DNA from: Candidatus Kerfeldbacteria bacterium
GTDB lineage: Bacteria; Patescibacteriota; Patescibacteriia; SBBC01; CAIJZX01
NCBI GenBank assembly: GCA_963731735.1
Contig: CAVSWO010000002.1
Span: forward strand, 270,106 to 334,105
Direction: 5' to 3'
DNA length: 64,000 nucleotides
Under the pieces are notes generated by a model. The model made no database searches. It saw only the letters and a list, made by a program, of their open reading frames with translations, and was not told the origin of the DNA. Below are positions 17,353 through 55,328 of this stretch, piece after piece. The translations under genes and the position numbers were made by a program. Position 1 is the first letter of the stretch. Each line of letters opens with the position of its first letter.

Positions 17353-17403
17353 CTATTGAGAGCCGCGCGGGAAATTCTCTTTAAGAGATAAAAATGTACG
17401 ATC

Positions 17404-17511
17404 GGACAACAGCGCGCATACGCCATCCTTCTCCCGCTTTGGCGCTACGGCTCCGCCGATATTCTAGCGCCACGCTCATTTCGGACGGCGTATGACGCGC
17501 AAACGTTGTCC
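17404..17511 (+). repeat. attC site d (108 bp; R'' GGACAAC ... R' GTTGTCC)
   Basis: GGACAAC-AGCGCG-CATACGCC ... GGCGTATGACGCGCAAAC-GTTGTCC. R'' complements attC h R'. Confidence 0.8.
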
Positions 17512-17583
17512 GACATATATTTTTTGGAAATTTCCCGCGCGGCTCTTTGGGAGTATAATGGGAGTGTTTAATTATCACGGAAT

Positions 17584-18234: not shown

Positions 18235-18261
18235 TTGCGCAGGAAGTTTTTTTGAACTACC

Positions 18262-18328
18262 ATATACGGTCGGACAACAGCGCGTATGCGATATACTACG
18301 TACAATCGCATACGCGCAAACGTTGTAC
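18262..18328 (+). repeat. attC site e (minimal, 67 bp; R'' GGACAAC ... R' GTTGTAC)
   Basis: GGACAAC-AGCGCG-TATGCGAT-[12-nt loop]-ATCGCATAC-GCGCAAAC-GTTGTAC. Confidence 0.8.
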
Positions 18329-18345
18329 GAAATGCTTTAACTAAT

Positions 18346-18915
18346 ATGAAAACAACAATTATTGTAATGTACGGTCCGCCTGGTGTTGGCAAGTTTACAA
18401 TTGGCAAACAGCTTTCCAAGAAAACAGGTTTTCGTTTCTTCAATGGACATAGACTTGCCGATGTCGTACATAGTATTTTCGAATTTGGAACGAAAGAATT
18501 TATTGAAACAACAAATTTTCTTTGGCTAAATCTTTTTTCAAAACTAGTAAAAAGCCAACCTCGGGGCCTAATTATTAGTTTTGTCTATGGTGTGCAAACC
18601 CTCGAAGGCAAAAAGGATGATCTGTTTTGCAAAAAATTTATAGCTGTAGCCAAAAGAAACGATGCCAAGATCCACTTCATTAAACTCACCTGTTCTGATG
18701 ACAGGCTCTACAGACGTGTTCAAAATAAGTCAAGAAGAAGATATGGGAAATTGACATCGGCAAGTCTTCTGAAAAAAATCCGAAATAACTACAAGGTTGA
18801 TGAAGAAATTCCTTTTGTTAAAAGTATAGAGATTGATACAACTACTTATACGCCTAAACAAACGGCGGATCGAATTATTGCCAAATTAAACCTTGCCTCT
18901 TTAAAACGTCGTTAA
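18346..18915 (+). CDS. cassette 9: P-loop NTPase / small kinase-like protein
   Basis: Walker A GPPGVGKFT near the N-terminus and an adenylate/zeta-toxin-like kinase size of about 190 aa. The start was taken after the attC e R' site. Confidence 0.55.
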   Translation: MKTTIIVMYGPPGVGKFTIGKQLSKKTGFRFFNGHRLADVVHSIFEFGTKEFIETTNFLWLNLFSKLVKSQPRGLIISFVYGVQTLEGKKDDLFCKKFIAVAKRNDAKIHFIKLTCSDDRLYRRVQNKSRRRYGKLTSASLLKKIRNNYKVDEEIPFVKSIEIDTTTYTPKQTADRIIAKLNLASLKRR

Positions 18916-18922
18916 AGCACTC

Positions 18923-19061
18923 CGTACAACAGCGCGTAACCGACGCGGTTTCTGGCGACCGGCGGAGCCGTTCGCTTCCGAAACCGCTACATTTGCTGGT
19001 GTTGTCCGCTAAAGCGGAGTATTCTAACACCAGCAACGTCGGTTACGCGCAAACGTTGTCC
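18923..19061 (+). repeat. attC site f (139 bp; R'' GTACAAC ... R' GTTGTCC)
   Basis: A conserved frame. The central module CGGTTTCTGG...CGAAACCGCT plus TTGCTGGTGTT...AACACCAGCAA is shared with attC g. Confidence 0.8.
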
Positions 19062-19153
19062 GACATACATATTTATCTTATTGAATTGGTTTCCCGCGCG
19101 GCTCCTTCCAGAGTATAATAAGATTGTTTAAAATACTTAATTAAGTATATTTT

Positions 19154-19798
19154 ATGAAATACCGACAAGGTATCGTTTGGGCACCGGTGCTCATCATTAT
19201 CGGTGCAGTTGTGGTAGCAGGTTTTACAACCTTTTTCTTGATTCAGGCCAACCAATCCGACAATGAAAACGTGAATGTTGCGCTGGCAAATCAGGCGAAT
19301 AGCAATCTCAGCGTTAACACAAATACGAATGTTTCGACTGTCCCAACTGGATGGAAGGTGTTTACAAATGATTATGCAAAGTATTCTTTTCAGTACCCAA
19401 CAACACTTATAATCAGTGATTGCAGTAATAAATTAGGAAGTTACGTATTAGCTCCAGGGGGATCGTGCGAAAATGAAACATTTGGGCCAGGTTTTTCAGT
19501 TTTACTTCATTCAGAGCCAACATACAATGAAGATGAGACATACGAAGAAATTAAAAAGTTAATTACAAATCCGCAAACAAGCTCCGTGCCAATTGATGGT
19601 ATGCTTGGTCGTCGATTGCAAGGTGTTCAAAAAATAGAGGACCCAGTTTTTCCGGACCAAAAAGAGAAATACTCCGACTACGTTTTTGTTCAAGCCAGGG
19701 GCAACTTCTATACCATTGCAAGTGTTTCTTTGACATCGGAACCATTTCGGTATACTGACTTTGAGAATTTCCTTGCGACCTTTAAATTCACGAATTAG
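19154..19798 (+). CDS. cassette 10: secreted protein, paralog of the cassette 7 protein
   Basis: MKYRQGIVWAPVLIIIGAVVVAGFTTFFLIQAN parallels MHKRQGIIWAPVLIIIATVGVAGIATYFLIRAG. It shares the same N-rich linker. Confidence 0.6.
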   Translation: MKYRQGIVWAPVLIIIGAVVVAGFTTFFLIQANQSDNENVNVALANQANSNLSVNTNTNVSTVPTGWKVFTNDYAKYSFQYPTTLIISDCSNKLGSYVLAPGGSCENETFGPGFSVLLHSEPTYNEDETYEEIKKLITNPQTSSVPIDGMLGRRLQGVQKIEDPVFPDQKEKYSDYVFVQARGNFYTIASVSLTSEPFRYTDFENFLATFKFTN

Positions 19799-19905
19799 CT
19801 GTAAAGATAATTATCTAGTTTTTCGAAGATGGATTTACTTCAACTCTCTGTTTAGCTGCGAGTGAAATTCTCTTTTGAAGATAAAATGTACGATCGGACA
19901 ACAGC

Positions 19906-20067
19906 GCGTAGAGGAAATCTTTGGTTTTAGCAAGATTTCTGGTAATATCAATGCATTAGTAGCTCTTTTTGAGCCTATCGGCTTACCGCAAATCGGCTGT
20001 CCGCCCCGTGGTGAGCGAGTGTACCACAGTGCGGCCAGCCGACTTCCTCTACGCGCAAACGTTAGCT
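19906..20067 (+). repeat. attC site i (162 bp; R'' GGACAAC ... R' GTTAGCT)
   Basis: L arms GTAGAGGAA/TTCCTCTAC. The central module is nearly identical to that of attC j. Confidence 0.8.
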
Positions 20068-20183
20068 GACATATTCCTTTTCTTTTCCAGCTAACGCCGG
20101 TGCGGGTAAAAAATCTTTCAAATTTCTCTTTTAAGGTCAACGCTTCTTGCAATAATCTGGTTTATTCAATAACATAATAATAT

Positions 20184-20624
20184 ATGTCAATCGAGCACGG
20201 CGGCCCATCCCCTGAGGAGATGGGGTTAAGTCAAGAGACAACTGAATCAAAACTTCCACCCGAAGCATTGGATGCGATGACAGATTATTGGGAGGAACAA
20301 CAAACAAAGTTTATAGGACAGATGGCCGACGGATCCGGCAGAAATTTTGATGTCGATATATCGCGGACAAATGCCTATTTAGAAAAGATTGACCAGGCAG
20401 ATTATTTTACACCCGCCGAAGTTAAAAAGACCGTCGATGGCAAAGAAGTAACTTCTCCGGAACGTTCAGTATTTGATTTTTTTAAGAAAAAGCTCGCGGG
20501 CTTAGAATACGCCATTGAACAGGGAGATGACCTTAAGACTATTCAGGAATACGAGAAACAGGCAAAGCAGATGAGAATGGCAGTTGAGGCGCTGGAGAAA
20601 ATCCGACCCAAAGACAGTGAGTAG
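20184..20624 (+). CDS. cassette 11a: hypothetical acidic protein (146 aa)
   Basis: ORF with a plausible composition. No motif was recognised. Confidence 0.45.
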   Translation: MSIEHGGPSPEEMGLSQETTESKLPPEALDAMTDYWEEQQTKFIGQMADGSGRNFDVDISRTNAYLEKIDQADYFTPAEVKKTVDGKEVTSPERSVFDFFKKKLAGLEYAIEQGDDLKTIQEYEKQAKQMRMAVEALEKIRPKDSE

Positions 20625-20835
20625 CTTTATAGCAAAATGGCCGCCAGTGATAACTATTGCCTCTTTTGTTGGCTTGCTTATTCTGATGGCTGGCATCTTT
20701 GCTTGGGCAACAGGTACCAATTTGGGGTCGGTCACGAACGCAGTGGTTACATTGCTATCAATTGTTGGTCTCATAGTTCTTTTGGCGCTAACATTTGTTT
20801 CAAAAAACCCTAAAAAGCCAGACCAGAAGCAGTAG
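20617..20835 (+). CDS. cassette 11b: small two-TM membrane protein (start uncertain, GTG/TTG)
   Basis: Two hydrophobic helices (ITIASFVGLLILMAGIFAWA and AVVTLLSIVGLIVLLALTFV) and a lysine-rich tail. It overlaps the stop of 11a. Confidence 0.35.
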   Translation: MSSFIAKWPPVITIASFVGLLILMAGIFAWATGTNLGSVTNAVVTLLSIVGLIVLLALTFVSKNPKKPDQKQ

Positions 20836-20897
20836 AAAAATTCGAAAGTTTTTTACACGCCTTCTCTTAACAGAGAAGAAAAGAAAGGGAATACGAT

Positions 20898-21070
20898 CAG
20901 CTAACAGCGCGTAGAGGAAATATTTAGTTTCAGCAAGATTTCTGATAATATCAATATACTCGAAACTCTTTTGGAGCCTAATGACTTGCCACAAATCGGC
21001 TGTCCGCCCGGTGGTGAGCGAGTGTACCACAGTGCGGTCAGCCGACTTCCTCTACGCGCGAACGTTGTAC
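20898..21070 (+). repeat. attC site j (173 bp; R'' AGCTAAC ... R' GTTGTAC)
   Basis: R'' is the exact complement of attC i R' GTTAGCT. It shares a roughly 120-nt central module with attC i. Confidence 0.8.
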
Positions 21071-21093
21071 GAAATATAGTCATCCCCCCTACT

Positions 21094-21717
21094 TTGACCA
21101 ATTCAACAAAAATAAAGGCAATAGTATTTGATTTTGGCGATGTGATTTGCTTTTGGGATGATCAGATCTGGAGCGATGAGGAGTTGCGATTACGTGGAAT
21201 CAATGGAGAGGAGCTGAGGAACCTGATGTATGAATATATGCGTCATGGTGGCGAGGGAAAATATCATAGCTTCCTTGACTACTATGATACTCATCAGCAC
21301 GGTTCTAACATCGAAAGAAAAGTCATTGCTGGCTTGTACGAGGACCGGGAACAAACAGGTAAACTTGATCCCAAGATGGTCAATCTCATTACAAAACTAA
21401 AGTCTCGATACAAAATTGGGTTGCTTTCAAACTATACCAAAGGACTTGAAGACTTCTTGATAAACCGATTCAAGATTCACCACCTTTTTGACGCTGTAGT
21501 CAGCTCATACACGATTCGGATTAGAAAGCCCGCGATTGATGCGTATCATTATGTCGCAAAAGAATTATCAGAGCAGGTTGAGCATTGTCTTTTCGTCGAT
21601 GATAAGCAAAAAAACGTTGACGTAGCACTTGAGGCAGGCATGGAGGCAATCCTCTTTTCAGGTTTCGATGACCTTGTGAAAGAAATGGAGCAACAATTTG
21701 GTATCAGCATTTCCTAA
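21094..21717 (+). CDS. cassette 12: HAD-superfamily hydrolase
   Basis: Motif I FDFGDV, motif II LSNYTKG, a conserved K in IRKP and motif IV FVDDKQKNVD. There is no ATG after the attC, so a TTG start is assumed. Confidence 0.6.
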   Translation: MTNSTKIKAIVFDFGDVICFWDDQIWSDEELRLRGINGEELRNLMYEYMRHGGEGKYHSFLDYYDTHQHGSNIERKVIAGLYEDREQTGKLDPKMVNLITKLKSRYKIGLLSNYTKGLEDFLINRFKIHHLFDAVVSSYTIRIRKPAIDAYHYVAKELSEQVEHCLFVDDKQKNVDVALEAGMEAILFSGFDDLVKEMEQQFGISIS

Positions 21718-21759
21718 CTACAGCGCTTTCAGGAGGAGTTCGGGGGGATGACTAAACTC

Positions 21760-21902
21760 CGTACAACAGCGCGTAACCGCCGCGGTTTCTGGCGACCTGG
21801 CAAAGCCGCTCGCTTTCGAAACCGCTACATTTGCTGGTGTTTTCCGCTGGCGCGGAGTAGTGATAACACCAGCAACGTCGTATACGCGCAAACGTTAGGT
21901 GA
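21760..21902 (+). repeat. attC site g (143 bp; R'' GTACAAC ... R' GTTAGGT)
   Basis: R'' complements attC j R' GTTGTAC. The central module is homologous to that of attC f. Confidence 0.8.
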
Positions 21903-22017
21903 AATTTTCGAAACGAGATTTTTTTATTCGGAGGTTTTGAATTTGGCACTAAAAAGAGGGGCCCGCGGATACAGTATCCTTGGGCCCCGAATTTCGACTG
22001 ACTCACAGAGATTGCAG

Positions 22018-28219: not shown

Positions 28220-28589
28220 GCCTGGGCAGCGCCGACCTGCCACTGGCAGCTCGGCGAACATTCGGACGGCGTTCCACTTGTCCTCACTTCTGCCCGTCTC
28301 GCTTCGCTCGACCCATTTCGCTAGCGGCCGCTAGCTCAAAACACCTCGTGGTGACCCGCGAAGGACTCGAACCTTCAACCCACTGCTTAAGAGGCAGTTG
28401 CTCTGCCTGGGCAGCGCCGACCTGCCACTGGCAGCTCGGCGAACATTCGGACGGCGTTCCACTTGTCCTCACTTCTGCCCGTCTCGCTTCGCTCGACCCA
28501 TTTCGCTAGCGGCCGCTAGCTCAAAACACCTCGTGGTGACCCGCGAAGGACTCGAACCTTCAACCCACTGCTTAAGAGGCAGTTGCTCT
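28220..28589. repeat. two tandem 185-bp repeat units (plus a degraded third copy at 28060-28219), each containing the 3' two-thirds of tRNA-Lys and a 16-bp perfect palindrome GCTAGCGGCCGCTAGC
   Basis: The sequence 28220-28404 is repeated at 28405-28589. Each unit carries tggtgacccgcgaaggactcgaaccttcaacccactgcttaagaggcagttgctct, which is tRNA-Lys from the CCA end through the D-stem. Confidence 0.75.
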
Positions 28590-28608
28590 ACCATTGAGCT
28601 AGCGGGCC
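28534..28608 (-). tRNA. tRNA-Lys (anticodon CTT)
   Basis: Cloverleaf with anticodon loop CTCTTAA, T-loop TTCGAGT and an encoded CCA. It lies at the end of the tandem repeat. Confidence 0.8.
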
Positions 28609-28631
28609 GCCAGCAAGTGTTTTGAATGATT

Positions 28632-28706
28632 TGGTGCCGCGGGTCAGAATCGAACTGACGACGCCAGCCTCTTCAGGGCTGCGCTCTACCATTGAGCTAC
28701 CGCGGC
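28632..28706 (-). tRNA. tRNA-Phe (anticodon GAA)
   Basis: Acceptor GCCGCGG/CCGCGGC, anticodon loop CTGAAGA, T-loop TTCGATT and CCA. Confidence 0.85.
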
Positions 28707-28756
28707 CTAAGCTTTGGGCTCCGCCAGCGTAGCGGAGTTTGATATTTTTTTCAAGT

Positions 28757-28845
28757 TGGTGGACCCTACCGGGCTCGAACGTCCGGTAGTACGGAAGCCA
28801 TACTATTGCTTCCGTTCTTCGGACCCTCCGCGTTGCCATAAACGA
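28757..28845 (-). other. aberrant tRNA-like element / tRNA pseudogene
   Basis: The 3' end CCCGGTAGGGTCCACCA is identical to that of tRNA-Ala(GGC). The T-arm carries a 3-nt insertion, the putative anticodon loop is 9 nt, and there is no complementary 5' acceptor strand. Confidence 0.4.
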
Positions 28846-28880
28846 AATGCTTGGAAAGAATGGGCGGGATCCCGCTCCGG

Positions 28881-28956
28881 TGGTGGACCGTGCCGGACTC
28901 GAACCGGCCACCTCCGCGTTGCAAACGCGGCGCTCTACCAGATGAGCTAACGGCCC
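28881..28956 (-). tRNA. tRNA-Ala (anticodon TGC)
   Basis: G3:U70, anticodon loop TTTGCAA, T-loop TTCGAGT and CCA. Confidence 0.85.
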
Positions 28957-29029
28957 CCCACCGGGGCATGAAATTACGGCGCTCGGACCTTACCCCGCCG
29001 CGCGGAAATGTGTTACGAGCCGTAACACG

Positions 29030-29275
29030 CTACTGATTTTTGATGAACGATCCGAAAATTGCTCGCAAGATGGCCTGGAGTCCGCCCGTTACCCAGAGCA
29101 ACGCACCAATGATAATCAGCAGGCCAATCAATTTAACAAACAACCGGGTTCCTCCCTCGGTCCCAAGATGCGCTTCCGCCCATTCAATCGGACCAATGAA
29201 ACGATAGATGGCTTCACTTTTAATGACCAGGACGGCTCCCACGGCTATAATGGCGATGATAATGAGGAAATACAT
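29030..29275 (-). CDS. small membrane protein (81 aa, 2 TM)
   Basis: Two strongly hydrophobic helices. There is no RBS, so this may be a leaderless transcript. Confidence 0.35.
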   Translation of the reverse strand: MYFLIIIAIIAVGAVLVIKSEAIYRFIGPIEWAEAHLGTEGGTRLFVKLIGLLIIIGALLWVTGGLQAILRAIFGSFIKNQ

Positions 29276-29365
29276 AGAAATTGTTTGGGCCTTGGTGGGG
29301 ACGAGAGGAGTCGAACCCCTGGCCTTCTCGGTGTAAACGAGACGCTCTCCGTTTGCTTCACTGCT

Positions 29366-29442
29366 TCTTGGTGGGGACGAGAGGAGTCGAACCCCTGGCC
29401 TTCTCGGTGTAAACGAGACGCTCTAACCAACTGAGCTACATC
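29366..29442 (-). tRNA. tRNA-Val (anticodon TAC)
   Basis: Anticodon loop TTTACAC, T-loop TTCGACT and CCA. It is flanked by the inverted repeat TTGCTTCACTGCTTCT / AGAAGCAGTGAAACAA and by partial tRNA copies (a 3' part at 29293-29346 and a 5' part at 29519-29544). Confidence 0.8.
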
Positions 29443-29635
29443 CCCAGAAGCAGTGAAACAATCGGCCGGGGCGCATGAATGCTTATGAAAGCGCCCGTCT
29501 CGTCGCGTCTGACGCGACTCGACCCAACTGAGCTACATCCCCGATAACTGGCCTACTCTACCAAAAATGCGGCCGAAAGACAATGGATGCATTCGTCCGT
29601 GAATGATGGTGCGGACGAGGGGACTGTCGACTGCG

Positions 29636-29917
29636 TCACCTGGTGACTTCGTCGACTAGACCTACCAGACGTTTTTTCGTGAAGGCTCGTCCAGAGCCTG
29701 ACTTGAGATAGTGTTCAAAATTCGCGGCTGATTGCCTGTCAATAAACCCGCCATACCAAACCAAGGTAAGGGGCCGATAGAATTTTGTGACGGGAGAGTG
29801 GCCATCGTTGTGTTCAGAAATTCTTCGGCGAAGATTGCTGGTCAGACCAACATACTGAAAACTTTTCTTTTTCGATTGGAGGATGTAAACAAAAAACATG
29901 GCCATACTGATCGCCAC
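29636..29917 (-). CDS. GIY-YIG nuclease family protein (small, UPF0213-like)
   Basis: FFVYILQSKKKSFQYVGLTSNLRRRISEHN contains the GIY-(10)-YVG motif. Confidence 0.7.
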   Translation of the reverse strand: MAISMAMFFVYILQSKKKSFQYVGLTSNLRRRISEHNDGHSPVTKFYRPLTLVWYGGFIDRQSAANFEHYLKSGSGRAFTKKRLVGLVDEVTR

Positions 29918-29972
29918 CTAGAGATAGCCTAGCAGTTTACATGCCGGAGTCAAGCTTTGCTTGACAAAGGCA

Positions 29973-30060
29973 TGGTGCGGACGAGAGGACTCGAACCTCC
30001 AACCCCTTGCGGGGACTAGCCCCTCAAGCTAGCGCGTATACCAGATTCCGCCACGTCCGC
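29973..30060 (-). tRNA. tRNA-Leu (anticodon GAG), long variable arm
   Basis: 88 nt. Anticodon arm CTAGC-TTGAGGG-GCTAG, variable arm TCCCCGCAAGGGGT and CCA. Confidence 0.8.
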
Positions 30061-31448: not shown

Positions 31449-32378
31449 TTAGGTCACCCGGGTCAGGTATTGTTGGAGATCGTCCGGAAGCGGCGCTTCG
31501 AACCGTAGGCTGCTGCCGTCTAAATCGACAAATCCCAGGAGGGTCGCGTGTAAAAACAATCGCGGAGGCTCAAGTCTGAGTTTTTTTTGCCCGCGGCGGC
31601 GATAGAGTTTATCCCCGAGTAACGGGTGGCTAATAGCTTTGAAGTGGACCCGGATTTGGTGACTCCGGCCGGTCAGAGTTCGAACCCGAACCAAGGTGAA
31701 GTTTTTAATATAACGCTCGACCGTAAATCGGGTGTCGGCTTCTTTGCCTTCTTTACTGTTCGGACGGGCGACCATTAATCCAGATTTATCTTTTTTTCGT
31801 GCGATGGCGAACGCAATCCGACCGCTGGTGTGCGTTATCCGGCCGAGCACCAAGGCGATATATTCTTTGATGATTGTGTGGTCTTGAAATTGTCGTTTGA
31901 GATGATCGAAGGCAGCCTGGGTTTTGGCGATTACCATCACGCCGGAAACGTCGCGATCAAGACGATGAACAATGCCGGGTCGCTGTTCCGGACGGTCACC
32001 AACCGTGGCAATGTTCGAATCATGATCGACCGCCCAGTCGGCCACGGTCCGTTCATGAATTGACGGGCCACCGTGGACTACCCAGCCCGACGGTTTATTG
32101 ATGACGAGTACATTGGTGTTTTCGAAGAGAATGTTCGGCTCGGTCAATGGCGCGTCGCGGACTGTTTCATGATAGGCAACCGTTAGATCACCGAAGCTGA
32201 TCGTGTCACCCGGTTTAACTTTGTGATGCGAGTTGACGGCCTGGCCGTTGACTTGGACCGTCCCGCCTTTGATGTGTTTCTGTAATTGTGAACGGGAAAT
32301 ATCGGTATGCTGAGCCAGAAATACATCAAGTCGCATTGGAGTTTCTTCAGCTGGCACAACAATTGATTGGGGAGACAT
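31449..32378 (-). CDS. RluA-family 23S rRNA pseudouridine synthase (RluD-like) with an S4 domain
   Basis: S4 domain (RLDVFLAQHTDISRSQLQKHIKGGTVQVNGQ) and the catalytic HRLDRDVSGVMVIAKT. The start was taken at MSPQS. Confidence 0.8.
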   Translation of the reverse strand: MSPQSIVVPAEETPMRLDVFLAQHTDISRSQLQKHIKGGTVQVNGQAVNSHHKVKPGDTISFGDLTVAYHETVRDAPLTEPNILFENTNVLVINKPSGWVVHGGPSIHERTVADWAVDHDSNIATVGDRPEQRPGIVHRLDRDVSGVMVIAKTQAAFDHLKRQFQDHTIIKEYIALVLGRITHTSGRIAFAIARKKDKSGLMVARPNSKEGKEADTRFTVERYIKNFTLVRVRTLTGRSHQIRVHFKAISHPLLGDKLYRRRGQKKLRLEPPRLFLHATLLGFVDLDGSSLRFEAPLPDDLQQYLTRVT

Positions 32379-32550
32379 GTGGCCATTGTACCACGGCTTG
32401 GTATGCTTTTGGGCGGGCTGCATTGACTTCGAACCCGGAACATGGTACAGCACACCGTAGAGAGCTTGGCCAGATGCAACCTGTGGTATACTGCAGGTGC
32501 TCAAATAAACCCTCCGAGCGATTTTTCATCATATATTTAGCAAAAGGGAT

Positions 32551-35520: not shown

Positions 35521-35596
35521 GCGCTGCCTCCGAAAGGCTTCGGCAAATAACACCACGCCCCCAGTCGGGGGCGTGGTGTTTGTAAAAAGTCTTGGC

Positions 35597-35672
35597 TGGT
35601 GGGCGACAGAGGAGTCGAACCTCTGACCTTCACAATGTCAATGTGACGCTCTAACCAACTGAGCTAGCCGCC
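35597..35672 (-). tRNA. tRNA-Val (anticodon GAC)
   Basis: Anticodon loop TTGACAT, T-loop TTCGACT and CCA. Confidence 0.85.
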
Positions 35673-35743
35673 CACGCCGGCCCACGATACCACAGCTTTG
35701 TCCGCAGCTCAAGTAGGGGCGCGGCATTGCCGGTACCGGGTTA

Positions 35744-35820
35744 TGGTGGGCGGACATGGATTCGAACCATGGACCGGTCGGATATAAGCCGACTGCTCTA
35801 ACCAACTGAGCTATCCGCCC
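35744..35820 (-). tRNA. tRNA-Ile with unusual anticodon TAT (UAU)
   Basis: Canonical cloverleaf GGGCGGA...TCCGCCCACCA. Anticodon arm GTCGG-CTTATAT-CCGAC gives UAU at positions 34-36. T-loop TTCGAAT. Confidence 0.7.
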
Positions 35821-35877
35821 TAACATGAACAATAAAAACCAAGCGGAGTGTACACCCCCGACTCATCCTTTTCAAGT

Positions 35878-36843
35878 CTAGGCTTCGATCGTCTTGCGAT
35901 CTTCCATGAAGTTGGTCAGGCGCGATGTCCAGGCGCCGATCCGACTGCCCGGCTTGCCCTCCAACAAGCGACGGTAGATGATTGTCCAACAAGCGAAACT
36001 AAAGGCACTCTCAATTGCGTAGACCAGGGCCAGCGAACCAAGGATGATGAAGAGTTCGGTAAACGATCCTGGCGTTGGGATCAATAGGGTCACAATCCCG
36101 GCCACCACGATGGTGGCAGCCAAATTGATGAAGTAGATGATGATCGCCAGTTCAATACTAACCAGCCAGTTTTGGGTAAACATCCGCCAGGCTTTGCGAA
36201 GACTCTCGATAATGTTCTGGCCACCCAGCACGATAAATGCGGTGGCGTATTTTGTTAAGAAGGAAACGATGATCGTGACCGGTAGGCTGACCAGCAGCGC
36301 TCCGATGGTGAAGGTTGTTAGCCACTGCGGTTGCTTATACAAAAAGTAAGCAATGGCCGGTAAGCCCGCCAAGATAACCCACATCCCCCAAATGAAAAGT
36401 TTCGTAATAATGTTCAGTCCAACAATCCGCCAGAAGGTGTCGCCGCCCACGGACAGCCCATCAAATAATCCGGTCGGTTTGCGTTCATCCGACTTGCCAA
36501 CGATCCGAACCAACGCCCCTTGGGAAATAAAGACCAGCCAAAAAACCGCTACCATCGTCAGCAGAATAGCCGCCAGGAAGCCGAGGGCGTAGAGGAAATT
36601 GCCGGTGAAAAAATTCTTGAGTGCCTCAAGGAATTTATCGGCGCCGCCGGCCTGGACCACCTCTCGAAAAGCCGCTAAGTTGTCTTGGAGCCAGCTTGGA
36701 GAGCTGGTATTCCGAAACAAAATATCGGTTTCCCCGCCATAGGCGAATAAACCGGCAAAAAATCCGAGAAACCAAAGGTATTTTTTCCGCCAAACGATGC
36801 TGAGCGCTTGTTGGAGGACTTGGCGGCGATAGAATGAGGCCAT
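35878..36843 (-). CDS. polytopic membrane protein, hypothetical (321 aa)
   Basis: Roughly six hydrophobic segments. No motif. Confidence 0.5.
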   Translation of the reverse strand: MASFYRRQVLQQALSIVWRKKYLWFLGFFAGLFAYGGETDILFRNTSSPSWLQDNLAAFREVVQAGGADKFLEALKNFFTGNFLYALGFLAAILLTMVAVFWLVFISQGALVRIVGKSDERKPTGLFDGLSVGGDTFWRIVGLNIITKLFIWGMWVILAGLPAIAYFLYKQPQWLTTFTIGALLVSLPVTIIVSFLTKYATAFIVLGGQNIIESLRKAWRMFTQNWLVSIELAIIIYFINLAATIVVAGIVTLLIPTPGSFTELFIILGSLALVYAIESAFSFACWTIIYRRLLEGKPGSRIGAWTSRLTNFMEDRKTIEA

Positions 36844-36919: not shown

Positions 36920-38770
36920 CTAAGCCTTGGCTGTCGGTTTCGGGCCCAGCAGCTCTTCGAACGCATCACGTTCGATGGTTTCCTTGCTCAGTAGCTCTTC
37001 AGACAGTTTTTCGAGCTCCGCTTTGTGCTCGTGCAGAGTCTTTTCGGCGATTTGGCGGGCGTGGGTCAATAAACGATCCATTTCCTGATCAATTGACTGA
37101 GCAATTTTTTCCGAGTAATCGCGCTGTTCATGAATCTCCCGGCCCAAGAATACCATTTCCTCTCGTTCACCAAACGTCCGCGGTCCAAGTTTACTCATGC
37201 CATAGCGGGTTACGATTTGGCGGGCCAAACGCGTGGCGTTTTGCAGGTCGCTGGAGGCGCCGGTTGAAACTTCATGGAAAATCATGTCTTCAGCTACTTG
37301 TCCGGCCAGCATAACCGCCATGTCGCTCATGAATTCACTCAGCCGCCGGTAGCTGCGATCCTGGGTTGGGGTTTTCAGGGTAAATCCTCCGGCCCGACCG
37401 CGGGCGATAATCGAAACTTTTTGGACCGGATCTGTATCGGGGAGGAAATGCGCCACGATCGCATGGCCGCCTTCGTGGTAAGCGGTAATCCGTTTTTCCT
37501 CATCCGACATCACCTTGCTCTTGCGTTCCGGTCCCAGCAGAACTTTTTCCATGGCATTCACGCAATCTACGAACGTGACCGCGGTCCGACGATCGCGAGC
37601 GGTAATGATCGCCGCCTCATTCAACATATTTTCCAGGTCCGCCCCGGAGAACCCGGCTGTCCGTTCGGCCAGCTGCCGAATATTGACGCTCTGCTCGAGG
37701 GGTTTCTTAACGGCGTGCACTTTCAGGATTGCCTCACGTTCATTGATGTCCGGCAGGTCGATCGTGACGCGGCGGTCAAACCGTCCCGGCCGCAACAGCG
37801 CTGGATCAAGCGTATCGGGGCGGTTGGTGGCGGCAATCACAATCACATGCGTGTCCGTGTCAAAGCCGTCCATTTCAACCAATATCTGGTTAAGGGTCTG
37901 TTCGCGTTCATCGTGGCCCCCGCCAAGTCCGGCACCGCGTTGACGACCGACCGCGTCGATTTCATCGATAAAGACAATGCTGGGCGCGGTTTTCTTGGCA
38001 CGACGGAAGAGGTCGCGCACGCGCGAAGCTCCGACGCCGACGAACATTTCCACGAATTCCGAACCAGAAATATTATAAAAAGGTACATCCGCTTCTCCGG
38101 CCACCGCTTTAGCCAGTAATGTTTTTCCGGTTCCAGGCGGCCCAACCAGTAAAGCGCCCTTGGGAATTCGCGCGCCTAAATCAGTGAAACGTTTCGGGGC
38201 CTTCAAAAATTCCACAATTTCTTGCAGCTCTTCTTTCGCCTCATGCGCGCCAGCCACGTTTTTAAAGGTAACGCGTTTTTTCTTGCTCGGCGTATCCGCT
38301 TCGCGTTGTGAGACTTGTCCAAAACTCATAGCCCGGCTGTTCTGTCCCTGAACTTGGCGGAAGGTCAGCCAAATAAATCCGCCGATAATTAAAATCGGCA
38401 GTAAAATCGGCAGCACCGTATTGAACAGAAACACCGAGCCTGAATTGTCTTTGACCGATCCAGTGACCGCGATCAGCGCTTCCGGCGAAACACCGAGATT
38501 GGTGGCGGCGGTTGTCCAATCAACCGTCGGTTCTTTGCGAGACTCTTGCTTGGTTCCATCTTTGAGCGTCACATTCAATTGGTCGCCGTTAATATCAACG
38601 ACTTTGACTTTCTCGTCCTGAATTTCCTGAACGACTTGTCCGAGCGTCACCACGTCCGGTTTTGATCCGGACAAACTGACCGTGCTCAAAACAAAGCTTA
38701 AGACCACCAGGGAGACCAGGAAGATAATAATATTCTTAAACAGGGGGTTCGTGCGCGGTGATCGAGGCAT
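36920..38770 (-). CDS. ftsH: ATP-dependent zinc metalloprotease FtsH
   Basis: Walker [12 protein letters not shown] and the Zn-binding HEGGHA. The start is at MPRSPRT, directly downstream of the promoter. Confidence 0.9.
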
Positions 38771-38783
38771 AGAGAACAGGCGG

Positions 38784-38812
38784 AGTATAGCGATGAATGG
38801 CCCTTTTGACAA
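38784..38812 (-). promoter_or_regulatory. sigma70-like promoter TTGTCA-17-TATACT for ftsH
   Basis: On the minus strand. The -10 lies 13 nt upstream of the ATG at 38770. Confidence 0.5.
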
Positions 38813-38866
38813 GCCCCGGCGGACCAGTCTACACTATCGGCAACCCATTTCGAAAGGAGGATCGAA

Positions 38867-39553
38867 TTGGACTTTACGCACCTCCCAATTCTGAACTCAG
38901 CCGAGGAAATATCTTCGGTCCTGGGGCTGTGCCTGGACGCGGTGCTCCGAGCCAGAGTTGATCTCCAATTTGAGGATCGGCAGGATACCGCCGAAAATTT
39001 CGCCAATCTGGTTTTGGCGGATGCCCTGGCCACCGGTTTCCATTCGGCCGGTTCGCACCAGAGTGTGGCGCTCGATCCGTCGCGTGAGCGGGATGCTTTG
39101 CTGCATTTCGAACCTCCGCTTGCCCGTTTTCGAACGGGTATCCGGATTGGCACGCGCTGTCTCTTCGTACTGAGTCAGCAGGATCGGCCACCGGCTGGAA
39201 CCTCGGGCCAGTTGTTGGCGCTGGGTAGCAGCGCCTTTCGAGCCGCGGCGGCGAATGTGCCAACCGCGGAAGAAACCTTGGTGCAAACCTACAACCGGCT
39301 CTGCCGATTGTTTCCTGCGTACGTCAGGGTGACAGCGCACGCTGGAATGAATCTCGGATTTCACGACCTGCCGAAACGACTCCTCCAGCCCACTGAACCG
39401 GTGGGCACTATCGACGACTTTCTGGAGGCACTGGCAGCCTATACGCGATCGCTGGACCATCCAGACTGGACCAGACTGCAACAGATAGTTGTCCAGCGCC
39501 GATCCATCGATCCGCACTTCCATTTCGAACTCCCGCCGGAACCTACCCACTAG
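38867..39553 (+). CDS. hypothetical protein (228 aa, TTG start)
   Basis: AAGGAGG RBS 7 nt upstream of the TTG. It was preferred over the antisense ORF 38897-39550. Confidence 0.4.
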   Translation: MDFTHLPILNSAEEISSVLGLCLDAVLRARVDLQFEDRQDTAENFANLVLADALATGFHSAGSHQSVALDPSRERDALLHFEPPLARFRTGIRIGTRCLFVLSQQDRPPAGTSGQLLALGSSAFRAAAANVPTAEETLVQTYNRLCRLFPAYVRVTAHAGMNLGFHDLPKRLLQPTEPVGTIDDFLEALAAYTRSLDHPDWTRLQQIVVQRRSIDPHFHFELPPEPTH

Positions 39554-39615
39554 GCCGGCGGTTTTTCTTGCGTCAACCGTTTTCGAGGGGGGATTTGTGC
39601 GTAAAGGTGTGGATT

Positions 39616-39637
39616 GGTATAATCCCCCCTGGGGGGA
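39616..39637 (+). promoter_or_regulatory. extended -10 (TGGTATAAT) overlapping the perfect C6/G6 palindrome TCCCCCCTGGGGGGA; further C-tract repeats downstream to 39680
   Basis: The perfect 15-bp inverted repeat lies immediately after the -10. It is consistent with a CsoR-family operator. More C4-5 tracts sit in the 80-nt leader. Confidence 0.55.
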
Positions 39638-46280: not shown

Positions 46281-47504
46281 TTAGGTGCTGGCTTCTTCGG
46301 TTGGCGCTTCAGCTGCAGCGGCTTCGGCTTGCGGTGCTTCATCTAAGCTGACGCCGGCTAAGGCTGGGTCGCTGACGCGTTCACCTTCGGCCGTCGATAA
46401 CCCGCGATCATCTTCCAGGGCTTTGACCGATAAGCCAAGACGGTGTTGGTCCGGTTCAATGGAGATAATTTTGAAATCGCGAACCTCATCAACCTTCAAG
46501 ACTTCGGCTGGATTCTGAATTTGTTTCTTGGACAATTCAGAAATATGGGCCAGTCCGTGAATTTCCTCATCGAGTTCCACGAAGGCGCCGAACGGATTGA
46601 GTTTCAGGACTTTGCCTTTGACGGTTTGGCCGATTTGGTATTTCTCAACCGCCGTTTTCCAGGGATCATCTTTGAGCTGTTTGAGCGACAGGGAGATCTT
46701 GGTGCCTTCGATACCGATAATTTTGGCTTTAACCGTATCGCCAACTTTGACGATATCGCGCGGATTCTCAACCCGCTGCCAGGCTAACTCAGAAATGTGA
46801 ATTAAGCCTTCCAGGTGCTCGCCAAATTCCACGAACGCGCCGAAATCAACCACCCCGGTGACTTGGCCTTCAATCGTGTCGCCAACATTGTAGCCGGCTA
46901 CGATTTGGGCGTGTTCCTTGGCCCAGGCGGCCTTTTCCGAAACAATCAGTTTGCCTTCGGCCTCGTTGACGTCAAGCACTTTGACGCGCAGCGTCTGGTT
47001 GATGAATTTTTGTAGCAGTTCTAAGATCCGTCCCTTATCACCACCCTCAACCCGAGGATAGTGTTCGGGCGTTAATTGCGAGACCGGCAAGAAGCCTTCA
47101 ATCCGGCCAACCATGACCATAATGCCGCCGCGGTTTGCGTCGGTCACCGTGACATCAATCACTTCACCCGAGTTCATTAGGCGAGTCAGCTCATCCCAGG
47201 CCTTCTGGTGTCCGGCCGAACGGAAGGAAAGTTCCATTTGACCTTGCTCATTTTCAAGTTCCAGGACGGTAGCCTGGACCCGATCACCAACTTTTAATTC
47301 AGAATATTCGCCGGATTCGTCGTAGAGTTCACGACCTCGGACAATGCCGGTAGTTAGGCCGTCAATATCAACGTGCGCTTCATTTTTTGAAACGCTTAAA
47401 ATCGTGCCTTGCACAATCTCACCGACCGCCGGTAGCTTCGGTAAAGAGGCGTCGGCTAATAGACGCTCCATTTCATTTATCGGGGTCTGCGTAGCAGTAG
47501 CCAT
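46281..47504 (-). CDS. rpsA: 30S ribosomal protein S1 (four S1 domains)
   Basis: Repeated S1 RNA-binding domains (G.V.G.V..I...G.FV.L). Confidence 0.85.
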   Translation of the reverse strand: MATATQTPINEMERLLADASLPKLPAVGEIVQGTILSVSKNEAHVDIDGLTTGIVRGRELYDESGEYSELKVGDRVQATVLELENEQGQMELSFRSAGHQKAWDELTRLMNSGEVIDVTVTDANRGGIMVMVGRIEGFLPVSQLTPEHYPRVEGGDKGRILELLQKFINQTLRVKVLDVNEAEGKLIVSEKAAWAKEHAQIVAGYNVGDTIEGQVTGVVDFGAFVEFGEHLEGLIHISELAWQRVENPRDIVKVGDTVKAKIIGIEGTKISLSLKQLKDDPWKTAVEKYQIGQTVKGKVLKLNPFGAFVELDEEIHGLAHISELSKKQIQNPAEVLKVDEVRDFKIISIEPDQHRLGLSVKALEDDRGLSTAEGERVSDPALAGVSLDEAPQAEAAAAEAPTEEAST

Positions 47505-49591: not shown

Positions 49592-52060
49592 ATGGCCGAT
49601 AAACAACCCGCTCCGACGAATCCGATTGGAAAAATAGAGGTCCGCCCGATTGTCACCGAGATGCAGGAGTCGTACCTCGATTACGCCATGAGCGTGATCG
49701 TGGCCCGCGCCCTGCCGGATGTTCGCGACGGATTAAAACCGGTCCACCGCCGCATCTTGTACGCCATGTGGGATATTGGTCTGCGGCCGGGATCGAAATA
49801 TCGAAAATCTGCCACCGTGGTCGGTGAAGTGCTCGGGAAATACCATCCGCACGGGGACGTCGCCGTCTATGATTCGATGGTGCGCATGGCCCAAGAGTTC
49901 GCCATGCGGTATCCGCTGGTTGACGGCCAAGGGAACTTTGGTTCGATGGACGGCGACAGTCCGGCGGCCATGCGGTATACCGAGGCGCGACTCGGACGCA
50001 TCGCGGCGGAAATGCTGACGGATATTGAAAAAGACACGGTTGATTTCGTCCCCAACTACGACGGTTCGCACAAAGAACCGCGCGTTTTGCCGGCCAAGTT
50101 GCCGAACTTACTCCTGAACGGGACCGTCGGCATCGCCGTCGGCATGGCCACCAATATCCCTCCGCACAACCTGACCGAGTTGGTTGATGCCGCGACGCAC
50201 TTAATCGATCACCCGAATGCATCGATCGATGATTTAGCGGCGATTGTGACCGGTCCGGATTTTCCGACCGGCGGCGTAATCTATAACCTGCAGGATATCA
50301 AGACCGCCTACGCCACCGGGAAAGGCGCCATCGTGATGCGCGCCAAGACTGAAATCGTTGAGGCTAAGGGCAGCGCCTTCAATATCATTGTGACCGAAAT
50401 TCCGTATCAGGTGAATAAGGCCACCTTACTTGAGCAAATCGCCAATGCGGTCCGCGATAAAAAAATTGACGGCATCAAAGATCTCCGCGATGAGTCGAAT
50501 AAAGAAGGTGTTCGCATCGTAATTGAGCTCAAGAAGGACGCGTATCCGAAGAAAGTTTTGAATCGCCTATTTACGCTGACCCAGCTGCAAGAAACCTTCC
50601 ATGTCAACATGTTGGCGCTGGTGGACGGCATTCAGCCGCGCGTGCTGACGCTGAAAATGGTGCTTGAAGAATATATCAAACACCGTCAGTCAGTGGTTCG
50701 CCGCCGAGCGGAATACGAACTCCGGGGCGCTAAAGACCGCGACCATATTTTGAAGGGCTTGCTGATTGCCTTGGCGCATATTCAGGAAGTTATCCGCACC
50801 ATTCAGAAGTCGAAGGACAAAGATGAGGCCAAGGCCAATTTGATCAAGAAGTTTAAATTAACCGACCCGCAAGCCACGGCGATTCTGGAAATGCGTCTGC
50901 AACAGTTGGCCAACCTGGAGCGTCTCAAAATTGAACAAGAACACAAGGAAAAATTGGCGCTGATCAAGGAGCTTGAAGCTCTGTTGGCTTCACCCAAGAA
51001 AATTTTAGGGGTCATTAAAGACGAACTGGCCGAAATCAAAGCCAAGCACGGCGATGCACGCAAGACCGAAATCGTACCGGGCGCGGTTGGCTCCTTTACG
51101 CAAGAAGATTTAATTCCCAATGAGTCGACGATCGTGGTCATCACCCGCGATGGCTATATTAAACGCGTCGCACCGGATCAATTCAAGAGCCAGGGTCGGG
51201 GCGGCAAAGGCGTGATTGGCTTGACCACGAAAGAAGAAGATATGGTGGCACATTTCTTGGCGACCACCACCCATGCCGACATGTTGTTCTTCACCAACCG
51301 AGGCCGAGTTTTCCAATTGAAGGCGTACGACGTGCCGGTTGCCTCTCGCACCTCCAAGGGTCAGGCGATTGTGAACTTTCTGCAACTGCCGGGGGAAGAG
51401 AAGGTCAACGTGGTACTCTCCAACGCCGACTTAAAATCCTATAAATTCTTGGTGATGGTCACCAAAGCCGGGGTGATTAAAAAAGTCACGACTGATGCAT
51501 TCAAAAATGTTCGTCGAAACGGATTGCTGGCGATCAAGCTCAAGGCCGGTGATTCATTGCGCTGGGTAAAACCTTCCAGTGGCAAAGATGACATTGAACT
51601 GATTAGCTCAAACGGACAGTCGATCCGCTTCAAAGAGTCCGGCATTCGCCCGATGGGTCGCGGCGCCAGCGGCGTCCGCGGAATGCGGCTTAAATCCGGC
51701 GATGAGATTGCCGGCATGGACCTGGTAACTGATGGGAAAGCGGAGGCCAACGAGCAGTTATTGGTCGTGATGGCAAACGGGTTCGGCAAGCGCACCCCGC
51801 TGAAAGAATACAAGGTTCAGGGCCGCGGCGGATCCGGAATTCGGACCGCGAAAATCACTGACAAGACCGGCAAAGCGGTGGCGGGCTTCATCGTCAACGC
51901 CAAGCTTGAACAAAACGATATTATTATCATCTCGAACAAGGGTCAGGTTATTCGGACGCCACTAAAATCCGTTTCGGTGCTTGGTCGCGACACGCAAGGC
52001 GTAAGAATTATGCGGTTTAATAACGTCAATGATAAAGTTGCCTCGGTAGCGTTCGTGTAA
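49592..52060 (+). CDS. gyrA: DNA gyrase subunit A
   Basis: Active-site region [14 protein letters not shown]-like [11 protein letters not shown] and C-terminal beta-pinwheel repeats. 822 aa. Confidence 0.95.
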
Positions 52061-52135
52061 ACGTAACGCGACGAAGCGCCGCTATGGCGTATCCCGGCGG
52101 CAGAAATTCCAGGGCTGGTAAACCCGAGAAATATA

Positions 52136-52187
52136 CGCAATACTGGGGTTATTATCCGAACCAAGTTCGCATAATAACCAGTTGTAC
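52136..52187 (+). other. second copy of the attI sequence (identical about 52 bp, including the palindrome and the GTTGTAC core)
   Basis: Exact repeat of 12191-12242. It is followed by a cassette cluster whose first attC inverse core is GTACAAC. Confidence 0.7.
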
Positions 52188-52244
52188 GAAATTGACTTTT
52201 TCCTTTAAACTGGAAATTAACTACTTAGTATATTCAACAAATCT

Positions 52245-52622
52245 GTGGATCAACTTCCTGTAGTTCAGGCTCAAAATAATAGCTCCAATTGGTTTAAACG
52301 CTGGTGGTGGATTTTCCCTGTATTTTCGGGGCTCGTTTATGGCCTGTGGCTGGTCCTCGCTAAGATGCTCTATTGGAACATTGCCAGAAAGTGGAATTTT
52401 CTCGCAGCTGGTTTGGCAATTTTCGTTGGGCTACTTTCTGTGCTCTTTTGGCGACGCGGCATTACGGGAAAAATTATAACCCTACTGACCATCACAACAA
52501 TTGGTTTTTTCTCGTACATAGTTATTGGAGCCGCCCGACCAGCTATCTATGAAAAAGCTTACACTTTCCATCTCCAGAAGTATTGTCGATTCAAACTTGT
52601 GCCCAAGATAATGATTGTATAG
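52245..52622 (+). CDS. cassette ORF: small membrane protein (125 aa)
   Basis: AT-rich with three hydrophobic helices. Confidence 0.45.
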   Translation: MDQLPVVQAQNNSSNWFKRWWWIFPVFSGLVYGLWLVLAKMLYWNIARKWNFLAAGLAIFVGLLSVLFWRRGITGKIITLLTITTIGFFSYIVIGAARPAIYEKAYTFHLQKYCRFKLVPKIMIV

Positions 52623-53130
52623 AAATATTTCAAGTCCTTCCGCGATAATTGAAAGTATGAAACCGTATGGTGATCCTCGACTTCAAGCTATAACATACAA
52701 TGTGCCGACGTCATCAACGTTTAATGTCAATTACTCCTGGGGCAGCCGGGAGGTAACGCGTTCAGGGTCGGTTCGACGAGTTTGTGTATCAAAAGAGTAC
52801 TACCAAACCAATAAACAAGAATACTACCTCTGGACAGGCATACAAGAGTATGAATCTGCGGCATCGTGTAGTTGCGTCGCTCAGCGATGTGCGAATACCA
52901 AGTATGTGATTGGTGAATACCCAGAAACCCCAACAGAAAATCCTACAGGAACAATTACGAAAACACCGCAGCCCGCCAAAGTAATAGACTCAAAACCCCC
53001 TTCGACACCAATTGGTGACCAAGGCCCAACGATCAACGATGTCCAAGTTAGCTACAATGCTACCCAGGCCACTATTTTATCGGTAACTGTAAGAAGCAGA
53101 CGGCATCGTAAACTACGGATCGAGTACTAA
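52615..53130 (+). CDS. cassette ORF: hypothetical protein (171 aa)
   Basis: AT-rich. It overlaps the upstream ORF by 8 nt, so this is a two-gene cassette. Confidence 0.45.
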   Translation: MYRNISSPSAIIESMKPYGDPRLQAITYNVPTSSTFNVNYSWGSREVTRSGSVRRVCVSKEYYQTNKQEYYLWTGIQEYESAASCSCVAQRCANTKYVIGEYPETPTENPTGTITKTPQPAKVIDSKPPSTPIGDQGPTINDVQVSYNATQATILSVTVRSRRHRKLRIEY

Positions 53131-53305
53131 CTATGGCTCATTTATTAGTAAAAGGAATACACTACTAACCATTCCATTAGCTTTGACGCATATCAAGGAC
53201 AAACGTATCACTACGCGATCCGCAGTTGCCTTCCTCTGACCTCCACAACATGCACCAGCACCGGCGATGGTGTTTTCAGTATCCAATAAAGGAAAAGCGA
53301 GCACC

Positions 53306-53405
53306 GTACAACAGCGCGTATACGCCATCCTTCTCTCGCTTAGGCGGTAATGATATTATACCGCCACGCTCGTTCCGGACGGCGTATGACGCGCGAACGT
53401 TAAGT
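53306..53405 (+). repeat. attC site k (100 bp; R'' GTACAAC ... R' GTTAAGT)
   Basis: GTACAAC-AGCGCG-TATACGCC ... GGCGTATGACGCGCGAAC-GTT. The central module is about 85% identical to attC d in array 1. Confidence 0.75.
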
Positions 53406-53467
53406 GAAATTGAGGATTTGTCCAAAAAATATATAAGGGCAAAAAATTATTTAATAACTAGATAAAC

Positions 53468-54234: not shown

Positions 54235-54317
54235 TTTTTTGCCCGATTTTAATAATGAAGAACAAATCCTCAAACTCAAGCCACGCTGCGCTCTCACTCC
54301 CTTCGTTCGTTCGGGGC

Positions 54318-54417: not shown

Positions 54418-54480
54418 AAATGTTGCTATTGACGAATTAGTACCTTCGGTTCTAAGATCGCGTATTCGATCTTTCACAAC

Positions 54481-54809: not shown

Positions 54810-54838
54810 CTCTATAAGAAACGCTGCGCAACACATCT

Positions 54839-54955: not shown

Positions 54956-54962
54956 CCATAAT

Positions 54963-55313: not shown

Positions 55314-55328
55314 CTTACATATTACGAC

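Follow-up and report, generated by a model that had tools for sequence, protein, structure and literature searches.

Telling the isoleucine codon AUA from the methionine codon AUG is a classic hard case of the genetic code, and the solution taught for bacteria is lysidine, which is made by the essential enzyme TilS. Here we describe a transfer RNA (tRNA) gene that points to another solution, a tRNA-Ile with a gene-encoded UAU anticodon. It was found in a 64,000-nucleotide stretch of DNA from Candidatus Kerfeldbacteria bacterium (assembly GCA_963731735.1, contig CAVSWO010000002.1, positions 270,106 to 334,105 of the forward strand; this whole 64-kb stretch is called the window below), a member of the candidate phyla radiation (CPR, or Patescibacteria). 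We think it probable that this tRNA-Ile(UAU) decodes AUA in its genome in place of TilS and lysidine, as its counterpart does in Mycoplasma mobile.

A survey detected TilS in 98.18% of the bacteria examined and termed it 'evolutionarily stable' (PMC6063277), and as late as 2024 a paper called it 'highly conserved across bacterial species' (PMC11938285). Nine tilS-less species from three clades have been listed with a TAT tRNA-Ile gene, along with 371 orphan TAT tRNA-Ile sequences from metagenomes as of 2013 (PMC3575796). TAT tRNA genes were counted in 19 species (PMC4013482), and a 2026 preprint terms UAU tRNAs 'rare cases' (bioRxiv 10.64898/2026.02.03.703510). A first reading of the window from its letters (hereafter the sequence-only reading) had likewise called such a gene rare. 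This holds for the published literature, but not within the gene's own phylum, where it lies beside ftsH in 25 distinct organisms.

The described system to which we compare the window most closely is the tRNA-Ile2(UAU) of M. mobile (Taniguchi et al. 2013, PMC3575796), in which charging depends on Arg865 of the isoleucyl-tRNA synthetase (IleRS), the equivalent of E. coli W905R. The CPR system would resemble it in a gene-encoded UAU that replaces CAU and TilS in a small reduced genome, and in the presence of A37, which in M. mobile is N6-threonylcarbamoyladenosine (t6A). The M. mobile case is, however, an isolated loss inside Tenericutes, whereas the CPR state concerns whole clades and a conserved ftsH-linked locus. 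The unmodified U34, the IleRS Arg865 and the ribosome-level discrimination of AUA from AUG were shown experimentally in M. mobile (PMC3575796). Bifidobacterium and Neorickettsia are also without tilS and have a TAT tRNA-Ile gene, and in them charging depends on a eukaryote-type IleRS that was acquired horizontally (PMC3575796). Lactobacillus casei, L. plantarum, Cyanothece and Ferrimonas encode a UAU tRNA-Ile too (PMC3575796), but they have kept tilS, whereas in the window, within its 64 kb, the slot that holds tilS in relatives is without it.

More distant parallels are the eukaryotic cytoplasmic tRNA-Ile(UAU), with its pseudouridine-A-pseudouridine anticodon, and the TiaS-less archaea with a TAT gene, which also read AUA with a U34 tRNA. 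These belong to other domains of life with other IleRS types and modification enzymes, and the window gene is without an intron. With the canonical tRNA-Ile2(CAU)/TilS system the window gene shares the codon, the genomic slot, A73, U12-A23 and the architecture of a tRNA-Ile; it differs in having T and not C at position 34, a slot without tilS, and U38 in place of A38.

Identification of a tRNA-Ile gene with a UAU anticodon

The gene lies on the minus strand at 35744..35820, exactly the span that ARAGORN calls as tRNA-Ile (anticodon tat). The Rfam tRNA model RF00005 matches 35747-35820 (minus strand) over its full length (model positions 1-71) with 71.6 bits (E=1.1e-13), the top Rfam score among the window's 11 tRNA matches. 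In the RNA sense, the 5' part reads GGGCGGA-TA-GCTC-AGTTGGTTA-GAGC-A-GTCGG-CTTATAT-CCGAC, and after CCGAC the 3' part continues as CGGTC-CATGG-TTCGAAT-CCATG-TCCGCCC-A-CCA, with the CCA end encoded. The canonical cloverleaf described by the sequence-only reading is confirmed by both programs and by the four stems of 7, 4, 5 and 5 bp, which pair with zero mismatches. ARAGORN and the sequence itself also bear out the UAU anticodon in the loop CTTATAT, whose seven nucleotides are C32, U33, U34, A35, U36, A37 and U38; no second anticodon register is possible. Orthologs, described below, support the same assignment.

The determinants recognized by E. coli IleRS, as reportedly set out by Nureki and colleagues in 1994, are A73, C4-G69, U12-A23, C29-G41, A37 and A38. 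By inspection, the window gene has A73 as its discriminator, C4-G69, U12-A23, C29-G41 and A37, while position 38 is U, not A. Judged by these residues, isoleucine identity outside position 34 is in place save U38 for A38, and charging with isoleucine is predicted.

The window gene has no close counterpart among E. coli tRNAs, its best matches being generic tRNA-Lys and tRNA-Phe at 77-79%. The D-loop types of the CPR UAU tRNAs are mixed. Locus identity favours descent of the UAU gene from Ile2(CAU) over descent from Ile1(GAU).

Conservation of the gene downstream of ftsH in CPR genomes

The anchor gene of the conserved locus is ftsH (36920..38812, minus strand; Pfam Peptidase_M41, AAA and FtsH_ext). 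Between it and the tRNA lies the gene of a DUF7847 membrane protein (35878..36843, minus strand), the lineage marker of the locus. For comparison, 96 loci were fetched in all (denoted by L-numbers, L001-L094 and so on), and GTDB species representatives supplied 80 loci that were kept. The FtsH of the window is 51-64% identical to its homologs among these 80, and its best matches are from Patescibacteria/CPR (Uhrbacteria, Magasanikbacteria, Parcubacteria and Kerfeldbacteria). The nearest named relatives of the DUF7847 protein, at 54% and 46% identity, are both from 'Candidatus Kerfeldbacteria bacterium'.

ARAGORN places a tRNA-Ile(tat) gene 40-5000 bp downstream of ftsH in 19 of the GTDB-representative loci, all from CPR and labelled as Taylor-, Jorgensen- and Nomurabacteria, Paceibacterota, Minisyncoccales and others. 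With five lineage relatives and the window's own organism, these make up 25 distinct organisms with the UAU gene. Every locus fetched from the lineage of the window again has ftsH, then DUF7847, then tRNA-Ile(UAU): L082/L083 (metagenome), L086 (the same organism, Logan assembly), L087-89 (Kerfeldbacteria GCA_016193315.1), L090/91, L092/93 and L094 (GCA_040960375.1). The window locus is in strict synteny with L082, L087, L090, L092 and L094, and the protein encoded next to the tRNA is 34-62% identical to the window's in the lineage relatives. The succession of tRNA-Ile(UAU) and tRNA-Val(GAC) is also found in L082, L087, L092, L094 and L042.

Twenty of the UAU tRNAs were aligned, and six lineage orthologs were compared besides. 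In this alignment 99.0% of stem cells pair, both sides have changed in 17 of the 21 pairs, and compensatory changes are present in all four stems. The covariation score is 0.83, while shuffles score 0.19 +/- 0.02 and slid controls no more than 0.15. Positions 32-37 (CUUAUA) and A73 are invariant, U12-A23 is kept in all sequences but one (19/20), and the six lineage orthologs concur with the alignment on tRNA-Ile(UAU). On this comparative evidence we regard tRNA-Ile(UAU) as functional, with its structure and anticodon under purifying selection. The covarying stems and the invariant anticodon loop mark a working tRNA whose UAU anticodon is itself selected, and they exclude both a pseudogene and a suppressor of recent origin.

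Position 38 (35782 in the window) is C in 14, A in four and U in two of the aligned tRNAs, the window having U, while A38 is present in each of the four Ile2(CAU) genes used for comparison (E. coli, L007, L010 and L024). Changes at positions 32 and 38 tune the affinity of a tRNA on the ribosome. One may speculate that the shift at position 38 is an anticodon-loop adaptation that accompanies U34, as part of the solution to AUA/AUG fidelity.

As a separate observation on the fetched loci, CPR-type FtsH loci also occur in several TPA_asm records whose titles read 'uncultured Gammaproteobacteria' or 'Candidatus Saccharibacteria' (L002, L005, L008, L017, L022, L058 and others). Their FtsH clusters with that of Parcubacteria or ABY1-like genomes, and the titles look unreliable for taxonomy.

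Mutual exclusion of tilS and the UAU gene at CPR ftsH loci

Nine CPR loci (L007, L009, L010, L012, L020, L023, L024, L062 and L076) have a PP-loop open reading frame (ORF) with the SGGxDS motif at a distance of 88-245 bp on the upstream side of ftsH. The six that were tested (L007, L010, L012, L023, L024 and L076) match Pfam ATP_bind_3 (PF01171) with E-values between 1e-54 and 1e-60, and one also has the TilS substrate domain; database relatives are named 'tRNA lysidine(34) synthetase TilS'. A UAU tRNA is present in none of these nine tilS-bearing loci. Conversely, a TilS hidden Markov model (HMM) built from CPR seeds found no match in the flanks of the 25 UAU organisms, and no CAU tRNA was found within the same flanks. 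tilS and the UAU tRNA are mutually exclusive at the CPR ftsH loci compared.

The slot downstream of ftsH is occupied by a CAU tRNA in the tilS-bearing loci L007, L010 and L024. That of L024 aligns over 97% of its length, at 86.5% identity, with an E. coli gene that is a tRNA-Ile in RefSeq and has a CAT anticodon, and the CAU tRNA of L007 has the same anticodon arm as that of L024. Because of this match and the shared anticodon arm, the three downstream genes were assigned as tRNA-Ile2(CAU). L007 and L010 have the same layout of ftsH, DUF7847 gene and tRNA as the window, but with tilS and CAU where the window has no tilS and UAU. On the upstream side, the order in L009, L010 and L012 is rpsA-[hpt-like]-tilS-ftsH, while in the UAU loci L030 and L048 no gene separates rpsA from ftsH, as if by clean excision.

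In the window itself neither tilS nor tRNA-Ile2(CAU) was found. The TilS HMM and tblastn gave no match over the 64 kb, and none of the 11 window tRNAs called by ARAGORN has a CAU anticodon. The region directly upstream of ftsH (38813..39567), where tilS lies in the tilS-bearing CPR relatives, holds neither the gene nor a remnant of it, since tblastn and hmmsearch --max with CPR TilS seeds over 38780-39620 gave nothing better than E~0.07. The sequence-only reading had raised a possible loss of tilS. This is upheld for the window and for the slot upstream of ftsH; because our data covered the 64-kb window, we infer a genome-wide lack of tilS and of tRNA-Ile2(CAU) from synteny and from the analogy with M. 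mobile. An upstream cluster, 'c0', present at many CPR loci, was considered as a divergent TilS and rejected, as it proved to be ribosomal protein S1 merged with FtsH by loose clustering.

In a rough, single-gene neighbour-joining tree of FtsH the UAU loci fall in two separate clades, and the lineages with tilS and CAU (Kazan, Peregrinibacteria, Doudnabacteria and L010) are basal, together with a Chloroflexi outgroup in which some members have tilS. As far as a single gene can tell, this weakly suggests a derived UAU state with more than one origin.

Two further arrangements were observed among the fetched loci. In Uhrbacteria/Magasanikbacteria-like loci (L001-L005, L008, L014, L015, L019 and L032) rpsA and ftsH are direct neighbours without an intervening tilS, and neither a tRNA-Ile(UAU) nor a CAU tRNA lies within 10 kb. 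L023, from candidate division Kazan, has a cluster of three tRNA(CAU) genes at 7442-8747, just upstream of tilS-ftsH; this trio may represent the initiator, the elongator Met and Ile2 beside its modifying enzyme.

AUA is a sense codon in use

AUA codons were counted over 26 genes of the window, of which 25 match Pfam. AUA makes up 53 of 11,212 codons (4.7 per 1000, or 7.3% of Ile codons) and occurs in 20 of the 26 genes, including ftsH, gyrA, infB, clpP and smc. The frequency is similar to the 4.9 per 1000 of E. coli (PMC12514573). At the position of the informative AUA of ftsH (residue 310), 71 of 80 homologs have Ile. This genome thus uses AUA as a sense codon, for which it needs a decoder. 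The different AUA-decoding strategy proposed by the sequence-only reading finds support in the conserved UAU tRNA, in the vacant tilS slot and in this use of AUA, which extends to housekeeping genes.

A model of AUA decoding and its alternatives

Taken together, the following model is proposed. The tRNA-Ile(UAU) sits in a conserved slot downstream of ftsH that holds tRNA-Ile2(CAU) in tilS-bearing CPR relatives, and in the Kerfeldbacteria-like lineage as well as in a large Paceibacteria-like clade UAU occupies this slot and tilS is gone from its usual place. As position 34 is T in the gene, lysidine is neither needed nor possible. By analogy with M. mobile, an IleRS adapted to U34 would charge the tRNA with isoleucine; neither the window nor any of the 96 fetched loci encodes an IleRS. 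U34 would then pair with the A of AUA, and misreading of AUG through U-G wobble would be curbed, again as in M. mobile, by a mix of ribosome and tRNA-Met competition. The anticodon loop, with C or U for A at position 38, or a modification of U34 may provide an additional safeguard against AUG.

Several points weigh against this model. The search for tilS and a CAU tRNA covered the 64-kb window, and both could lie elsewhere in the genome; L. casei and L. plantarum do carry both systems (PMC3575796). Charging by IleRS and the state of U34 are inferred by analogy, and the argument for a derived loss rests on the single-gene neighbour-joining tree of FtsH. The comparison of window genes with their orthologs in L082, L087, L090, L092 and L094 is also less than clear-cut. 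At conserved columns of these lineage orthologs, AUA stands opposite I in five cases, V in four, M and L in three each, and S and T in one each (n=17, a small sample); these counts are compatible with Ile. In pairwise alignments AUA stands against Met in 16% of cases, compared with 2.4% for AUU/AUC. The excess is probably due to the single-step transition between ATA and ATG, and it would also be expected if AUA and AUG were discriminated leakily.

One alternative leaves the function of tRNA-Ile(UAU) as proposed and holds that its U34 is chemically modified, by pseudouridine or by an xm5U-type or new modification, and that this modification, in place of the ribosome, would block the misreading of AUG. 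In its favour, U34 of split-box bacterial tRNAs is normally modified. A gene with S4 and PseudoU_synth_2 domains (31449-32504, minus strand), the sole RNA-modification gene near tRNA-Ile(UAU), lies 3.2 kb away and is syntenic in L082 (16958-17899), L087 (17846-18775), L092 (13089-14021) and L094 (15295-16203). Its architecture is presumably that of an rRNA enzyme of the RluD type, which counts against this alternative, and since the entire neighbourhood is syntenic, the linkage means little; that the synthase gene keeps within a few kb of the tRNA in every lineage relative is most likely plain synteny. The possibility of a modified U34 has been raised for M. suis, but the sole characterised bacterial case has an unmodified U34 (PMC3575796), and MnmE, MnmG and MnmA are absent from the window genes. 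We consider a modified U34 possible, though somewhat doubtful.

A second alternative is that tRNA-Ile(UAU) is a redundant decoder, with tilS and tRNA-Ile2(CAU) located elsewhere and AUA read by both the lysidine-bearing (LAU) and the UAU tRNA. Bacteria with such a double system exist, and a transitional state of this kind has been proposed for L. casei, L. plantarum, Cyanothece and Ferrimonas (PMC3575796). Our search covered about 8% of the 822,872-bp source contig. A TilS profile search of 5.8 billion proteins gave the best 120 of 7852 matches, all of them Moranbacteria-like, so a TilS on the source contig is conceivable. Against redundancy, however, tilS lies at its short distance from ftsH in 9/9 tilS-bearing CPR loci, whereas the slot is without tilS in 25/25 UAU organisms, and in the flanks of these organisms there is no CAU tRNA, its slot being now occupied by UAU. 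On balance a redundant decoder seems unlikely to us.

We hold it highly improbable that the gene is degenerate (a pseudogene), has arisen by recent suppressor mutation (C34-to-U in Ile2, G34-to-U in Ile1) or is a tRNA of a mobile element or phage with no core role. One point mutation can indeed make UAU, as in the B. subtilis tilS suppressor with G34-to-U in Ile1 (PMC3575796, PMC3919564), and mobile elements have been somewhat active elsewhere in the window, as seen from an integrase and a partial duplicate of tRNA-Lys. But the UAU loop is invariant in 25 organisms whereas the adjacent protein has diverged to 34-62% identity, compensatory changes occur in all four stems, and the context is one of syntenic housekeeping genes with normal G+C and no phage match. 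The preferred reading remains that of a tRNA-Ile(UAU) that replaces the TilS/lysidine system as AUA decoder.

The genomic neighbourhood of the gene

The minus-strand order at the locus is ftsH, DUF7847 gene, tRNA-Ile(UAU), tRNA-Val(GAC) and a 13-bp hairpin, facing a convergent gene for a DUF11 surface protein. The tRNA-Val(GAC) gene (35597..35673, minus strand; ARAGORN and Rfam) lies 70 bp downstream of tRNA-Ile(UAU) and is probably co-transcribed with it. A consensus scan found a sigma-70-like promoter match (TTGAAA, 17 nt, TACACT) at 35847..35875 on the minus strand, ending 26 nt upstream of the 5' end of tRNA-Ile(UAU). It overlaps a small hairpin with a T-run, which could alternatively be the terminator of the ftsH-DUF7847 transcript. 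The G+C-rich 13-bp hairpin, ACACCACGCCCCC/AGTC/GGGGGCGTGGTGT (35550..35579), was read from the letters between tRNA-Val and the DUF11 gene and is a candidate bidirectional terminator; the terminator scan did not call it because its T-run is weak.

For the DUF7847 protein, PF25231 is precomputed on an identical protein, P0001, and a separate Pfam scan gave no match. DUF7847 homologs are encoded downstream of ftsH in L001-L019, the tilS-bearing L007 and L010 included. Upstream of ftsH, the long minus-strand ORFs translate to Arg-rich nonsense, and a plus-strand ORF of 228 aa (38867-39553), conserved in L082 and L092 and without a Pfam match, is probably a real divergent gene. The gene of ribosomal protein S1, rpsA (46281..47504, minus strand; four Pfam S1 matches), lies 7.5 kb upstream of ftsH on the same strand.

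All 11 window tRNA genes called by ARAGORN are on the minus strand. The rest of this co-oriented array comprises Leu(GAG), Val(UAC), Ala(UGC), Phe(GAA) and Lys(CUU) at 28534..30060 (minus strand; ARAGORN). Its order is common to L094, L042 and L021, and a CAU tRNA is absent from it. A partial copy of tRNA-Lys(CUU) lies at 28349-28422 (minus strand; Rfam 33.8 bits, model positions 10-63). It repeats exactly, in direct orientation, about 75 nt from the 3' side of the intact tRNA-Lys (28534-28608, minus strand) and about 20 nt downstream of it, with some 115 bp between the two. Such a repeat resembles the scar of an att-type site or a small duplication.

The window is chromosomal and rich in housekeeping genes, which encode FtsH, RNase Y, YmdB, ClpP, IF-2, GyrA, SMC, RNase III, NusB, RpsA, S16, PilB and RNase HII. 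Around the tRNA-Ile(UAU) locus the G+C content is 0.53-0.56, as in the remaining core region, and a megablast search of a phage collection with the window's 30-42 kb gave no match. Together with the strict synteny, this speaks clearly against a phage- or island-borne accessory tRNA. Elsewhere in the window, a tyrosine recombinase gene (Phage_integrase; 11305-12126, minus strand) borders a stretch of low G+C (0.40-0.48, against about 0.54 elsewhere) at 11305-22000, which contains a Q_salvage protein (queuosine salvage, 12966-13922), an AAA_18 kinase-like ORF, a HAD hydrolase and several ORFs without a Pfam match, and is possibly a genomic island. A second stretch of low G+C (0.40-0.46), at 52000-56000, has few long ORFs, and the two that were tested had no Pfam match.

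Discussion

The tRNA-Ile(UAU) as a bacterial AUA decoder is known already. A replacement of CAU and TilS by UAU that is clade-wide and conserved at one locus in CPR may be undescribed. The searchable literature held no paper linking lysidine or tilS with CPR/Patescibacteria; since subscription journals were not covered, this is no proof of novelty. We tentatively propose, as a real though not favoured possibility, that large parts of CPR dropped TilS and lysidine, and that at least two FtsH clades, Paceibacteria-like and Kerfeldbacteria-like, rewrote their ftsH-linked tRNA-Ile2 from CAU to UAU along with a change from A to C or U at position 38. The shift at position 38 may tune the tRNA against misreading of AUG on the unusual CPR ribosome.

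For annotation, pipelines that expect a CAU tRNA-Ile2 will score UAU genomes as incomplete. If the replacement is true for whole CPR clades, TilS would be unreliable as a universal bacterial marker or drug target, and the 371 orphan metagenomic TAT tRNA-Ile sequences may gain a plausible home. It would also provide dozens of natural sister lineages, CAU/TilS versus UAU at one locus, for the study of co-evolution between IleRS, anticodon loop and ribosome. The single gene described here is an expected feature of its lineage; it is the lineage-level pattern that contradicts the textbook generalisation.

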